Source of the DNA: a virus
Strand: one strand, 5' to 3'
Length of the DNA stretch: 64,000 bases
IMG/VR virus record: IMGVR_UViG_3300031687_000001
Span: 1-64,000 of that record
Shown here: positions 3,823 through 56,417 of the stretch, piece by piece
Layout: every line of letters begins with the position of its first letter
Numbering within the stretch: position 1 is the stretch's first letter
Notes under the pieces: generated by a model
The model's database searches: none
What the model was told of the DNA's origin: nothing
Seen by the model: the letters and a program-made list of their open reading frames with translations, nothing else
Made by a program: the position numbers and the translations under genes

Positions 3823-4742
3823 TACTTTAGACCTGCGAGTTTCTTTAATTTTTCAATAGCACTTGCATTATCACCAACTGCGCCTGCATTGCTTGCTGAT
3901 GCATCTGAGTTTGCGTCTTGCTGTACATCATCAGGATCAGTAGATGTCGTACGACCAGTAGATACCGTGTCACTGCCGTATGCTGCGTTTCCGCCGGGTG
4001 CACCTGCTACCTTACGCTCTTCAATAGTCTCTTCGTTGCGCTGAGATTTCTGATGAGCATTATACTCTTTACGACGAGCATCATGTTCTTTCTTTTCAGC
4101 AGGAGTCATTTGAGATACGAACTTCTTTGATTCGTCATACCTATCTGATGAAGTCTTTGACAGTGCGCTGGGATGACCCGCCTTTGGTGACGTAGTTGTT
4201 GTTGCAGGAGTTGATTTGCCCGCCAAACTTCTTACAGTCAAACCTAGCGCGACTCTGCCAATTGCTCCGATAATCGGTAACATTTCGTCTAATTGTTCTT
4301 CATCGTCGCGCTCATTTTTTAAATTTGCTACAACGCCAGGAGATTGCATCTCTTGCATTCTGCTATCTTTGTCATGCTGTGCGTACTCTTCATACGACAT
4401 ATAGTAATCAGTATCTGGATCATAGTATAGACCTTCTGTTGCATCATAATATACTACTTTACCAGATCGCAACATAAACGGACCTTCTAAACCATTGCGC
4501 TCTTGATAACGCTCTTTATCCATTGATGGAAGCACTGTATACCCTTCATCGAGATCTAGAGTGATATACTTAGTAAATAGATCATTGTCATTTGTCTTTA
4601 GTGCTGTAGTTAATTGCAATGTACCAGAGAAATTCAAGTCTCTTAGATCTGCACTGATCTGTTCATCAGTTAATTCTACACCAAACTGCTCTAGTGCATA
4701 ATCGCGCACTGTATGTATAATACTATTGTTCTTGATTTCCAT
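3822..4742 (-). CDS. Hypothetical head-associated protein with Tyr-repeat (OCRE-like) segment
   Basis: VYYDATEGLYYDPDTDYY segment; ends IEKLKKLAGLK. Confidence 0.55.
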   Translation of the reverse strand: MEIKNNSIIHTVRDYALEQFGVELTDEQISADLRDLNFSGTLQLTTALKTNDNDLFTKYITLDLDEGYTVLPSMDKERYQERNGLEGPFMLRSGKVVYYDATEGLYYDPDTDYYMSYEEYAQHDKDSRMQEMQSPGVVANLKNERDDEEQLDEMLPIIGAIGRVALGLTVRSLAGKSTPATTTTSPKAGHPSALSKTSSDRYDESKKFVSQMTPAEKKEHDARRKEYNAHQKSQRNEETIEERKVAGAPGGNAAYGSDTVSTGRTTSTDPDDVQQDANSDASASNAGAVGDNASAIEKLKKLAGLK

Positions 4743-23652: not shown

Positions 23653-25209
23653 TTATAAAAATGACATTGGCATTGGATCATCGTAGTCATTATCCAAACC
23701 TTCTTCCATCAGGTATTCATATGCAGTATCTTCGTAGTTGGTTACTTCTTGTGCCATTCGTATGATCAATACTAGTGCCATAACCAAATCATCGTTCTCG
23801 CCTTCTTTTGCGCCGTAACTATTACCACGAGAAATAAATACTTTCAATTCACGTAGTAGATTATTACTTGCTATTTCCAACTTATCAGTCTCTACCCAAT
23901 ATTTCAATTTAGCACATGCTGCTATCTTTGATTTATGTGTCGTAGTGAATCCCTTACGATACGCTTTTGTATTTCCATGCTTCTTACGCTCACTCAAGAA
24001 TGTTCCTGGGAAGAATTCTTCGCCTATCTCTTCTACACATACCAATCCCGCTTCGCCCATTGAATTGTTTTCTAGGCTATAATATATTTCCGATTGCTGC
24101 TTTGTCTCTTCATCTATGTAAATCGCTATCTTCTGTAAAATTCTTACTTGTTGCTGTATAGTTGTTTTGTTATGTTGCCATTCAGCAACTTGCTTCATAC
24201 CCGGCAATTCGTACACTTGTATCGCTGCGTTATCTCCACCAGTTCCTAAACTAGGATCTAATGCAATAAGATATAAATTACCCGATTTCAAGGGCTTATA
24301 CCAGCGTACTTGTCCTTGCATTGCCCATGCTTCTTTTGGTTCCATCATGGCTAATTTCAAACTGCTTACCAATGTCTCATCAAATGCGATGAATTCATTT
24401 TTATGCTCACGTCTGAATTTCTCTTCGCCAATCTTACCTTGCTCTATTCTTGCCCACTCTTCATCTCTATCAGGATGTCTATCCCATATCGCATCATAAG
24501 AGGCAAAACTATTAATACCTAGATCAGTTTCGTTACCGTACTCATCTGTCTTCTTTTGTGAATCTCTCCAAATCTGTGCAAATTGGTCATCATCTTGGTT
24601 GGGGGTAGATGTTATAATACATTTACCACCCGTTGCTAATGTAGGTGACAATGCTGTCCAGAAATCTCTTGCGATATTTGGGCGCACGAACGCAAACTCG
24701 TCTAAGTATGCTAGTGATATAGACATACCACGACCAGTGTTATCAGTAGTTGCTTGTGCAATAATACGACTGCCATTATCAAATTCCAATGAACCTTTGT
24801 TGTATGATGTAGCGCCCGCTCTCAGATAATCAGGCAATGTTTCATATGCAAAGCGAATACGCTGCATTATCTCTTGTGCACCACTATATTTGTGTGCTGC
24901 AATTAAGATTGTCTGATCTGGTACAAACATTGCATACCATAATAGATAGCCAGCAGCACACGTTGATTTTCCCATTTGGCGGGAGATCAATGCTACTGAG
25001 TTTCTATAATTGTGATATACATCAACCAATTCTTCTTGGAAGTCAAACAACTCAAACTTCATTCTACCCTTGGTAGGATGCTGTATCCAACAATGAGTCT
25101 TCATGAAATATTTGGGATCATTAGAACATTTTGCCAATTCTACTAATTGTTCGTGTGTGTAATTTTCTTGTTGATGTGGGGTTTTTACTAATTTAGTATC
25201 TGCTGCCAT
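23653..25209 (-). CDS. 17: Terminase large subunit (gp17-like)
   Basis: SRQMGKS, YLDEFAFV, ITSTPN, LDPSLG, NDDLVMAL. Confidence 0.95.
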   Translation of the reverse strand: MAADTKLVKTPHQQENYTHEQLVELAKCSNDPKYFMKTHCWIQHPTKGRMKFELFDFQEELVDVYHNYRNSVALISRQMGKSTCAAGYLLWYAMFVPDQTILIAAHKYSGAQEIMQRIRFAYETLPDYLRAGATSYNKGSLEFDNGSRIIAQATTDNTGRGMSISLAYLDEFAFVRPNIARDFWTALSPTLATGGKCIITSTPNQDDDQFAQIWRDSQKKTDEYGNETDLGINSFASYDAIWDRHPDRDEEWARIEQGKIGEEKFRREHKNEFIAFDETLVSSLKLAMMEPKEAWAMQGQVRWYKPLKSGNLYLIALDPSLGTGGDNAAIQVYELPGMKQVAEWQHNKTTIQQQVRILQKIAIYIDEETKQQSEIYYSLENNSMGEAGLVCVEEIGEEFFPGTFLSERKKHGNTKAYRKGFTTTHKSKIAACAKLKYWVETDKLEIASNNLLRELKVFISRGNSYGAKEGENDDLVMALVLIIRMAQEVTNYEDTAYEYLMEEGLDNDYDDPMPMSFL

Positions 25210-25227: not shown

Positions 25228-25548
25228 CTATTTTGAAATTATATTGCGCACTGATATTTCTAAATTTTCTAGAAATGTATCAATGTCAATTACTTCGTTT
25301 ACTAGTTCGTCAGCACTAACATCTACATCATCGTCTAATGATTCTATAACATCTGATTCATTAGTACTTAATTTATTAACATTAACCCATCTTTCATCGC
25401 CGGATTGTGAACGAATCATAACATCATTGAAGTCATTAGGATTGATACCAACTACTTTATAAGATTTATTCTTATATGTAATAACATCGCCCACTTGTGT
25501 AGGTGATTCTTGTAATACTGCTTCTATTAATTTTCTCATATCGTTCAT
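25228..25548 (-). CDS. Hypothetical protein
   Basis: 106 aa, SD AAGGA; starts MNDMRKLIE. Confidence 0.65.
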   Translation of the reverse strand: MNDMRKLIEAVLQESPTQVGDVITYKNKSYKVVGINPNDFNDVMIRSQSGDERWVNVNKLSTNESDVIESLDDDVDVSADELVNEVIDIDTFLENLEISVRNIISK

Positions 25549-25683
25549 AATTTCTTCCTTAAATAATTGCCGTTTTTTATATATATAGTAGCGAATTACA
25601 TATAATGGATAACGGCATCCTCTCTCCTTAGATAATAAAAACGGGCAAGCCTGTAATTATAACGGTCCTAAGGTCTAAGTTCT
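25549..25683 (-). ncRNA. Candidate structured RNA antisense to 23S rRNA H69/H70
   Basis: Plus-strand 25653-25674 equals the conserved 23S sequence at 21/22 nt; second arm 25588-25595; several internal stems. Confidence 0.55.
25577..25618 (-). CDS. Possible 13-aa leader peptide MPLSIICNSLLYI
   Basis: Strong SD TAAGGAG 5 nt before ATG, inside the candidate RNA element. Confidence 0.3.
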   Translation of the reverse strand: MPLSIICNSLLYI

Positions 25684-27024
25684 TTATAGTCCTGCGTTTT
25701 TAAGCAAGATTGCCAATTCTTTGGATTCTTCCAATGATTCTTCCACTGATGGCTCTTTCTTATCTCCATCGTACTCAGGCTCATCGTCCATTGTAGGCTC
25801 TTTCTTCTTAGATGCTAACATCTTCGCAAAAGCGGCTTTTTGTGCTGGACTCTGTGATTCTTCTAATGTATCACATTCACATGGATCACATTCACATTCA
25901 TTACAAGCAACTGCTTCTTTTACATCTTCTGCTGCATCTTTCATATCTTCATCAGTATCGCCATCTTTGTCAATGTCCAGAAAGTCTGGCTTGTTCTTAG
26001 ATGCTTCGTATAATGATTTCATGTTGTCTACAGTATGCTCAGTTACGCTAACCTTCATGTCTTCTGCATCCATATAACGCTTCAATGACAAGTTTACAGG
26101 CTGTGCAAACTCATATGGATCGCCATGTGATGTAGGTTCAGTTTCGCCCGCATTTGCTGGTGAATTTGCCCATTCGGTAATCTTCTTTTCTATCGCTTCT
26201 TCCGATAGACCTGCGCTATGTAACATACTTACTAATTGAGTAGTATCCATTGTTGGAGACTCTTCTAAATTTTTATCTTCCATATCGTTTGCCGCCTTTT
26301 TCATGTCTTCTTCTTTATCGCCATCTTTGTCTATATCTGCAAAGTCTGGTTTTGCTTCTTCTGTTACCCAGTTTTCACCTGTCATATCATTACAATCATG
26401 ACTGCAATCTGTGGTAGGCTTGTGCATTTCATCGCCACAATCTCTGCATACTTTCTTTACGTCTGCTTCGTACATTGACTCAATGAATTTCACTGGTGTC
26501 AATACTGTGCCACCAGTTTTATGATCAAGACGCAATGCCATATAAGTGTCATCTATTTTTGTCTTATAATCACGATGTATCTTAGCATAATCTGCTTTGG
26601 TCATTTCTATTTCACCAGCATCATTAATGTTTGCCATCGGACCCATTGCTTCTTCAACTGATTCAGTTTGTGATGCACTTACTAAATCGTCTGCGTCTAC
26701 GCCCATTGCTTCGCCCATCGTAAATCCGTCCATTGGAGCGAATTTAACACCATCACTAGTAATACTAACAACTTTGAATTCGCCTTCGCTTATATCACCA
26801 AATGCGTCTATTTGAATGGTAACATTCATGTCTTTGATATCAGCATTATAATCTTCTGATCCTTCGGTTGAACCAAAGCCATTTGCAGTTGCAGTGAATA
26901 CTTCACTGTCATCTGTTCTTTCGAAATTGTCCAATGTAACATTGCCATCTACTAATACGGTTGTTTCTACCAATACCTCAGTATTAGTAGTTAATGATTC
27001 CATTAATGTTCTCATTTCATGCAT
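25684..27024 (-). CDS. Acidic prohead-core/internal head protein with DxDxDG repeats
   Basis: KPDF.DIDKDGD..EDMK.AA twice; Cys clusters; many xEE/LEE sites. Confidence 0.55.
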   Translation of the reverse strand: MHEMRTLMESLTTNTEVLVETTVLVDGNVTLDNFERTDDSEVFTATANGFGSTEGSEDYNADIKDMNVTIQIDAFGDISEGEFKVVSITSDGVKFAPMDGFTMGEAMGVDADDLVSASQTESVEEAMGPMANINDAGEIEMTKADYAKIHRDYKTKIDDTYMALRLDHKTGGTVLTPVKFIESMYEADVKKVCRDCGDEMHKPTTDCSHDCNDMTGENWVTEEAKPDFADIDKDGDKEEDMKKAANDMEDKNLEESPTMDTTQLVSMLHSAGLSEEAIEKKITEWANSPANAGETEPTSHGDPYEFAQPVNLSLKRYMDAEDMKVSVTEHTVDNMKSLYEASKNKPDFLDIDKDGDTDEDMKDAAEDVKEAVACNECECDPCECDTLEESQSPAQKAAFAKMLASKKKEPTMDDEPEYDGDKKEPSVEESLEESKELAILLKNAGL

Positions 27025-55893: not shown

Positions 55894-56417
55894 TTAAGTT
55901 GAAATCTGTGCTGTGGTGGTTTGATTCTGGTAGCCTGAAGTGTCTACCCAAGAGGTTACATAATCAGACACTCTTAACCAGTATACATTGGTTCCAGACC
56001 CTATCTGATAAGCGTAAGAACCTCTTTGATAGAGACGAGTTCCTATCGTATGTGAGTAAACTCTTAAAGAACCTGAAACGTTATTTCTGTGGTAACTAAC
56101 GTTTGCAACTCCAGGATAGTCCCATATGGCAAAAGAATACATATCCTTAGCCCACGTCCAGTAACCTTGTGTATATGGGTTTGTATACGCAAGCTCTTGG
56201 AAAGTGGACTCATTATGCCCACTACTAACCCAAACGCTTGTAGTCACCTGATTACTCTTGCCGTGGAAATTATTGAATCTAATAGAACCAGATGATGGTA
56301 TACCTGAGACACCTTTACCTGCTAAGGCATGGTACTCAGATAACGAGTGGGAACCTACGCCTCCAAAGTGAGCAGCAATCTGTAGAATCTAATTTCTCCA
56401 GAGGTTTGTAAAGCCAT
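55894..56417 (-). pseudogene. Frameshifted fibre-tip/adhesin-like gene (~174 aa if repaired)
   Basis: TAATG-coupled MALQTSGEIRF, 2 extra nt, then QIAAHFGGVGSHSLSEYH... in the frame of ORF 55894-56247. Confidence 0.75.

Follow-up and report, generated by a model that had tools for sequence, protein, structure and literature searches.

A phage-specific family of structured RNAs complementary to the helix 69/70 region of 23S rRNA

Why does a phage carry, in the gap between two of its genes, the antisense of a segment of 23S rRNA? The question arises from an analyzed window of 64 kb, the first part of a 148.9-kb phage record in IMG/VR, to which unlabeled coordinates below refer. Plus-strand positions 25653-25674 match residues 1910-1931 of 23S rRNA at 21/22 positions, with the sole difference at C1914, and GTAGCGAA at 25588-25595 (plus) equals residues 1930-1937. 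As the 23S reference, we used residues 1-2486 of L106, a genuine 23S gene from the viral collection whose identity Rfam supports; the 22-mer named in the original prediction was confirmed against it, and the 8-mer was likewise recovered from the plus strand. The genes on either side, ORFs 25684-27024 and 25228-25548, are both read from the minus strand. The antisense of 23S helices 69 and 70 (H69/H70) therefore lies in mRNA sense, as had been proposed, and the antisense arm begins 9 nt past the stop codon at 25684-25686 (minus).

The upstream ORF encodes an acidic 446-aa protein that falls in PHROG 24078 and has no Pfam match, and the structured RNA described below starts 2-9 nt downstream of its stop codon. 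The downstream ORF (106 aa) has no family match, and its ribosome-binding site lies directly 3′ of the structured RNA. Farther along the minus strand is the gene for the large terminase subunit, of the T4-like type (23653-25209), which served as the query for relatives. The neighboring ORFs of the window encode terminase, virion proteins, and proteins without assigned function.

The rRNA match is neither a chance occurrence nor a scrap of rDNA. The 148.9-kb record contains its exact 17-mer core a single time, and 2.9 million viral contigs contain it 31 times, 30 of these outside rDNA; control 17-mers from two further universally conserved parts of 23S were found in 1 and 3 viral contigs. The predicted duplex between the 22-nt arm and 23S rRNA has an energy of -31.2 kcal/mol, compared to -16.9 ± 2.0 for shuffled arms placed at any site in 23S, and the best site of the arm across all of 23S is 1909-1931. 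The 8-nt duplex at the adjoining site, formed by the loop of the hairpin that we call P4, is no better on its own than shuffles (-12.8 versus -10.8 ± 1.5). The enrichment over control 17-mers, the duplex energy, and the retention of both arms in relatives bear out the earlier claim that the match exceeds chance. An rRNA gene fragment or contamination was considered and rejected, as the region has no Rfam rRNA match and its flanks are unrelated to 23S, unlike those of the rDNA locus L106.

Relatives of the locus were fetched by similarity to the large terminase. In contig L002 (terminase 97% identical), the same spacer is present with two substitutions; compared with the window, L002 shows 98.3% identity in the RNA, 91.7% at the end of the upstream ORF, and 76.6% in the downstream ORF. 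Contigs L021 and L025 (terminase 72% identical) have a shorter spacer in which both rRNA-like blocks are kept and all sequence between them is changed, the stems with compensatory changes. The single substitution in the arm, a C to U opposite G1921, retains a G-U pair. A search of relatives for the motif had been suggested in the original prediction, and it found both arms in L002, L021, L025, and many members of the wider family.

Most other terminase relatives have, at the position of the RNA, a plain terminator followed by a late-promoter-like box. An ATAAATA/ATAAGTA box is conserved 10-25 nt before the terminase start codon in most relatives (L004-L053); it resembles a T4-type late promoter, which places the element at a late-operon boundary. 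Several terminase relatives without the full RNA (L039/L048 at ~3915-3960, L031, L033/L034/L040, L035-L037, and L053) carry fragments of the 5′ domain before a plain terminator, of the types CUACCUUAGGACC, CCUUAA-loop-UUAAGG, or AAUUACAGG; their sequences suggest reduced or decaying versions of the element.

The window RNA is a member of a large, phage-specific family of structured RNAs, hereafter the phage anti-23S family, with at least 153 distinct members in IMG/VR. The two-block pattern occurs in at least 118 viral contigs, and about 70 of the 80 that were fetched have one architecture. In this main class the elements follow one another, in RNA sense, as helix P1, an unpaired UUAGGAC, the hairpin P2, a short P3, and P4 with a 9-nt loop, and the P3 loop pairs with the 3′ tail to form the family pseudoknot. 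A covariance model built from 70 main-class members (R1) recovers all 74 manually recognized members and none of 10 chance pattern matches. Run against the window, it finds 25567-25681 (minus) at 22.1 bits (E 5e-4 over 64 kb), and it has no second significant match in the 148.9-kb record, which thus holds one copy. The close relatives L021, L002, and L025 score 24, 19.4, and 18.6 bits, respectively; the low score of the window RNA is attributable to the model having been built from the main class.

In the alignment fitted to the R1 structure, P1-P4 are 86.7% paired versus 59.7% in shuffles, and in that same fitted alignment the covariation score is 0.625, compared to 0.186 in shuffles (0/500 reaching it) and 0.05-0.12 with slid partners. 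RNAalifold on an independent MAFFT alignment recovered P3 and P4 only, with many double changes, and P1 and P2 required realignment to the model. Across the family, P3 is 98.5% paired with compensatory changes, and the P4 pairs are 93-99% paired, again with many double changes. The pseudoknot covaries over 16 loop types; its longest Watson-Crick run averages 5.19, versus 3.03 ± 0.26 when tails are permuted (0/20,000).

Nothing relevant was found in Rfam 15 using the window region, 12 family loci, or a permissive scan of a main-class member, and a literature search that included the core motif itself did not turn up a description of the family. The statement in the original prediction that no such system had been described therefore holds for Rfam 15 and the searched literature, and the covariance model and Rfam comparison that it had proposed yielded a model that matches the members and a database without such a family.

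Within the window, the whole structured RNA is ~115 nt long (25567-25681, minus; all features that follow are on this strand) and represents a divergent member of the family. Its 22-nt 5′ arm (A′, 25653-25674) is antisense to 23S 1910-1931 except for a single mismatch at C1914. The first 12 nt of the arm are its family-wide core and are kept in L002, L021, and L025; the family core CCUUAGGACC lies near the 5′ end at 25664-25673. The invariant CCUUAGG (25667-25673) is here the 5′ strand of P1 and is predicted by the minimum-energy fold to be paired internally, in a 7-bp helix, with UCUAAGG (25626-25632), the 3′ strand of P1. The latter is a 23S-like copy that masks the core, as CCUAAGG does in members that we call class 2. 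The position of P2 is taken by an AU-rich arm extension and a 20-nt lineage-specific insert with a weak predicted hairpin (25633-25652, between the arm and the P1 3′ strand), common to L002 and partly to L136.

P3 (25607-25620), placed by analogy with the family P3, is a short GGA/UCC stem with an 8-nt loop. From this loop, UGCCGUU (25611-25617) pairs with AACGGCA in the A-rich tail (25568-25574) through 7 Watson-Crick pairs. This pairing had been predicted and is real, being the family's covarying pseudoknot. The P4 hairpin (25580-25604) has an 8-bp stem (25597-25604/25580-25587) and the 9-nt loop AUUCGCUAC (25588-25596), which contains B′ (UUCGCUAC, 25588-25595), antisense to 23S 1930-1937. 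The AAUUACA/UGUAAUU stem that was expected to bring the two arms together is absent from the minimum-energy fold and is not kept in L021, L025, or the wider family. The idea of a bipartite, permuted pair of arms survives as a conserved 5′ arm plus a hairpin loop, both set on the P1-P4/pseudoknot scaffold and not brought together by that stem. As a single sequence, the window RNA does not have an unusually stable fold (z = -1.15). The RNA also contains a strong AAGGAG ribosome-binding site and, after it, a 13-codon mini-ORF (25577-25618) that runs through P3 and P4. L002 has the same mini-ORF without any change, whereas L021 and L025 lack it; its translation would unfold the 3′ half of the RNA.

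Because the first retrieval demanded rRNA-like bases, members were refetched by the P3 loop and tail only. In this unselected set, the CCUUAGG core is present in 77/79 distinct members (73 exact), and the two matches without it are also without the family's other features. Conservation per column is 0.99-1.0 in the core and does not exceed 0.74 in the flanking columns, and the majority bases at 16 consecutive positions spell the antisense of 23S 1918-1933. The invariant CCUUAGG is unpaired in the main class.

The P4 loop points to the same part of 23S. Antisense matches of at least 7 nt in the P4 region fall at 1928-1937 in 38/256, compared to 5-9 in the fullest shuffle bin, and at 1966-1979 in 11. 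In about 45% of unselected members, the loop is antisense to 1929-1937; other loops, of the UUACGCCA and AACGCCAUUC types, are antisense to 1971-1979 and 1966-1976, respectively. The AGUCGUG and CCGGGAAU loop classes have only 5-6-nt 23S matches nearby, and in many AGUCGUG members the 5′ arm is lengthened by CUA, which makes it contiguous antisense to 1921-1933. Folding of the real 23S segment pairs 1930-1941 with 1968-1979, in agreement with the established helix 70. The alternative P4 loops thus map to both strands of helix 70 without having been selected to do so, which is the strongest internal argument for 23S domain IV as the partner.

The conserved target core, 1920-1937, comprises the 3′ strand of H69, the junction, and the 5′ strand of H70. 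An H69/70 target had been predicted, and it stands for these three elements; the conserved core does not include the H69 loop. The extension of the arm to 1910 is limited to this lineage and a few others (e.g., L136). The exposed conserved bases of the family RNA are tailored to 23S 1920-1937. In the mature 50S subunit, the target region is base-paired or buried, and the m3-pseudouridine at 1915 cannot pair, which makes access to finished ribosomes doubtful. Given the known behavior of RlmH, full pairing across 1915 would need unmethylated, immature 23S.

Antisense versions of this segment also exist outside the main architecture. In 30 non-rDNA viral contigs, contiguous versions of 17-30 nt, with identity often of 22-30 nt, lie within at least 7 different surrounding sequences (L082-L112) and are antisense to parts of 23S 1910-1942. 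Read in the antisense orientation, the copies in some of these contexts lead into a hairpin and a U run, and in some a -10-like box lies ahead of the copy as well; several, with a TATACT-like -10 box, seed, hairpin, and U run in order, look like free-standing small RNA genes.

Among cultured phages, a divergent member was found after an unannotated small ORF in Vibrio phage PWH3a-P1 (host Vibrio natriegens) and in four V. parahaemolyticus phages related to it. In PWH3a-P1, it occupies positions 80879-80988 of HQ634156. These surfaced from a 51-nt query of real 23S sequence, whose other matches were mostly rDNA contamination. The 1.2-kb locus had no near-identical counterpart among cultured phages, and a distant search with a main-class member gave one chance match and nothing else. 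T4 has no convincing member: a 17.7-bit match between b-gt and segA contains many mispairs. We also scanned bacteria and archaea using one representative genome per species (185,579 species), which gave 58 pattern matches. Of these, 41 are 23S genes with a second GTAGCGAA ~50 nt upstream, and the rest are mostly coding or chance matches; the sole true member, L372, is a contig of a Haliscomenobacter metagenome-assembled genome.

What might such an RNA do? Our leading explanation, which we hold to be somewhat more probable than not, is that it base-pairs with domain IV of the host 23S rRNA, most plausibly before H69/H70 form or in the free 50S subunit, and thereby impairs 50S maturation or subunit joining. 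The ~115-nt RNA would most likely form the 3′ end of the transcript that comes from the late gene upstream. Its P1-P4 and pseudoknot scaffold would present two segments, the 5′ arm core CCUUAGGACCG and the P4 loop segment B′, that together complement a continuous stretch of host 23S, 1920-1937 (to 1910 in this phage). Pairing would most plausibly occur while this stretch is single-stranded in nascent or immature 23S, or in the free 50S after strand invasion, and would stop H69/H70 from forming or working, with 50S maturation, subunit joining, or recycling disturbed as a result.

A synthetic PNA against H69 blocks E. coli translation and growth (Kulik et al. 2017, as summarized in PMC12828698), so the site is vulnerable, and the PNA addresses the same rRNA neighborhood by Watson-Crick pairing. 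Unlike the phage RNA, which is folded and centered on 1920-1937, the PNA is man-made and aimed at the H69 stem-loop. Its target is reportedly about 1907-1919. In a bolder version of our proposal, which we offer tentatively and regard as plausible short of probable, many large phages would carry a natural "antisense antibiotic" RNA whose two cooperating arms strand-invade or pre-empt 23S H69/70 and block 50S maturation or subunit joining, with the seed of some members, this one included, unmasked only by termination of translation upstream. A ribosome terminating 9 nt upstream would presumably open the 7-bp helix that masks the core.

Gene orientation across the family favors the antisense strand. 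Both neighboring ORFs (at least 100 aa) are on the strand of the RNA in 112/153 distinct members and on the opposite strand in 4, and the upstream ORF is co-oriented with the RNA in 133/144. The core begins a median of 9 nt past the upstream stop codon (153 distinct members), and in 16 members the TAG within the motif is the stop codon itself. This constant placement past a stop codon would suit a cis role no less well. The element could be a cis-acting 3′-UTR element instead of a diffusible sRNA, one that ends or stabilizes the upstream mRNA, as a terminator or exonuclease block, or works on a ribosome that finished translation a few nucleotides upstream; in a variant, it would hold or release the 50S subunit and so couple translation to the next gene. 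This reading, which we consider unlikely but worth keeping in view, also draws on the next gene's ribosome-binding site or the late-promoter-like ATAAATA box directly after the RNA, on the U run right after the pseudoknot tail in a subset of members, and on the plain terminator found at the same place in relatives without the RNA. In the window, moreover, no promoter-like site was found between the upstream stop codon and the RNA.

However, a stabilizer or terminator has no need of invariant rRNA complementarity, many members are without a U run, and certain of the contiguous versions in other contexts resemble free-standing genes, with a -10-like box and a terminator. H69 and H70 are also distant from the mRNA entry channel in the established ribosome structure, and tight spacing is common in compact phage genomes. 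The counts of G-U versus A-C in helices (61 versus 44) favor the antisense strand weakly, and we rejected them as too weak for use in strand assignment.

A guide RNA is another alternative, and we regard it as distinctly improbable. The arms would position a protein, either host RNase III or a phage enzyme, to cleave or modify 23S rRNA or rrl DNA. At 11 + 8 bp (~19 bp), the composite duplex nears the length of an RNase III substrate, and the contiguous versions reach 25-30 nt. The two-part reading of a continuous target also has the strand order of group II intron EBS2/EBS1 with IBS2/IBS1: there, too, two separated guides read one target in the same 5′-to-3′ order and the second guide segment sits in a terminal hairpin loop, a likeness that is topological only. 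In contrast to a group II intron, the phage RNA is ~115 nt long and has no intron core, reverse transcriptase, or splice sites. Small guide RNAs such as snoRNAs and archaeal sRNAs share conserved complementarity to functionally important rRNA positions, yet no C/D or H/ACA boxes were seen on reading the sequences, no partner-protein genes lie nearby, the genome is that of a bacterial virus, and, compared to an H/ACA pocket, the order of the arms is reversed. The guide reading is further opposed by the lack of a conserved neighboring protein gene: neighbors vary among polynucleotide kinase, nuclease, radical SAM protein, tail-fiber-like proteins, and terminase, and none recurs as a fixed partner. 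Reasoning from strand order also led us to reject the guide layouts of RNase P external-guide, hammerhead, H/ACA, and group I type.

The rRNA complementarity could also be irrelevant, the conserved unpaired bases instead binding a protein, an mRNA of phage or host, or Shine-Dalgarno-like UAAGG sites, or making tertiary contacts inside the RNA. CCUUA can indeed pair with UAAGG ribosome-binding sites, the core pairs internally in class 2 members and in the window RNA, and about a quarter of main-class members are without a clear 23S match in the P4 loop. We nevertheless find this explanation very improbable, given that 16 consecutive consensus positions are 23S antisense, that the two sites are adjacent on 23S and the opposite strand of that helix is where the alternative loops match, and that contigs with different surroundings have only the anti-23S stretch in common. 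Shine-Dalgarno pairing would leave the conserved GGACC unexplained, and an anti-Shine-Dalgarno mimic, in which only 5 bp would form, was rejected as a candidate.

Least credible is a relic or artefact at the DNA level (rDNA capture, a remnant of an endonuclease or intron site, an assembly chimera, or a plus-strand 23S decoy), which we consider largely refuted: the matched sequence does overlap the classical I-CeuI site, and introns insert nearby (e.g., in L330), but the two halves are ~60 nt apart and permuted, so that no endonuclease site exists, no endonuclease gene is near the locus, the element is kept with compensatory changes across many independent contigs, conservation is limited to the complementary bases and absent from flanking rDNA, gene orientation favors the antisense strand by 112 to 4, and, rDNA and chance matches aside, a single member turned up in the scan of bacteria and archaea. 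The I-CeuI site and the 23S intron sites L1917-L1931 occupy the same 23S positions as the phage match; in the phage, by contrast, the site is split and permuted, it is the antisense RNA strand that matters, and there is no endonuclease or intron. An I-CeuI-type endonuclease target, which would call for ~19-26 contiguous bp, or a group I intron relic was accordingly rejected, the order of the halves being reversed and no intron match having been found.

The phage RNA may be compared with several known systems. Base-pairing sRNAs, whether 3′-UTR-derived (CpxQ, SroC) or of the seed-plus-terminator kind (RybB, OmrA/B), also carry a short conserved segment on a structured scaffold. Like them, the phage RNA is located at an mRNA 3′ end, and some phage members and contiguous versions end in a hairpin and U run. 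Unlike these trans-acting sRNAs, the phage RNA has 23S rRNA and not an mRNA as its complementary partner, bears two separate recognition segments, and has a four-helix pseudoknotted scaffold; its processing and trans action are putative. The spacer has no promoter-like or canonical terminator-like site, only a weak U-rich run after the tail. We know of no link between the phage anti-23S RNA and Hfq or ProQ. The calicivirus TURBS is similarly an mRNA element beside a stop codon that complements rRNA, but it pairs with small-subunit 18S rRNA and lies upstream of the stop, whereas the phage element complements the large subunit and lies downstream.

If the pairing is real, phages would act on host ribosomes by RNA as well as by proteins, a new layer of takeover, and the family would represent a new RNA fold with a two-arm recognition design. 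Its aim would be among the most conserved and least mutable pieces of rRNA, in a region that forms the intersubunit bridges B2a, B2b, and B3, and it would demonstrate in nature that H69/H70 can be targeted by antisense. To our knowledge, it would be the first viral RNA to target the RNA core of the bacterial ribosome by base pairing. The family is abundant in uncultured large phages of water and soil and is absent from Rfam, and thousands of phage genomes should thus carry an unannotated gene. Since PWH3a-P1 and the V. parahaemolyticus phages carry a member, the question is directly testable in a laboratory host that grows fast.

Several further sequences drew our attention. The R1 model has a second match in the window, at 56295-56375 (plus), with 12.5 bits and an E-value of 0.15-0.36; it ends in the main-class tail AAAGUGAGCA, is without P3 and the core, and falls, on the strand opposite to its neighbors, within the 169 nt that separate two minus-strand ORFs. 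This match is probably due to chance. In T4, rnaD (species 2 RNA; L316 2054-2172, minus, equal to NC_000866 71053-71171), a stable RNA without known function, starts with a hairpin, ACCGG/GUCGCUA/CCGGU, in which the loop plus its closing bases (UCGCUACC) form an antisense match to 23S 1929-1936 similar to that of the family's P4 loop; the adjoining rnaC has GAGUAGCG twice. The resemblance of rnaD and rnaC may be a coincidence. In a Pseudohongiella genome (L330, ~404-493) and a Minisyncoccia genome (L324), the 23S match stops right after the 3′ strand of H69 and unrelated sequence follows; the position of this break is consistent with an intron or insertion near 1917-1920. Finally, the viral contigs L311 (2855-2871) and L312 (2636-2652) contain, in identical non-rDNA sequence, the conserved 17-mer GGGATAACAGGCTGATA from the peptidyl-transferase region of 23S; this shared sequence is possibly another rRNA-like element in phages.
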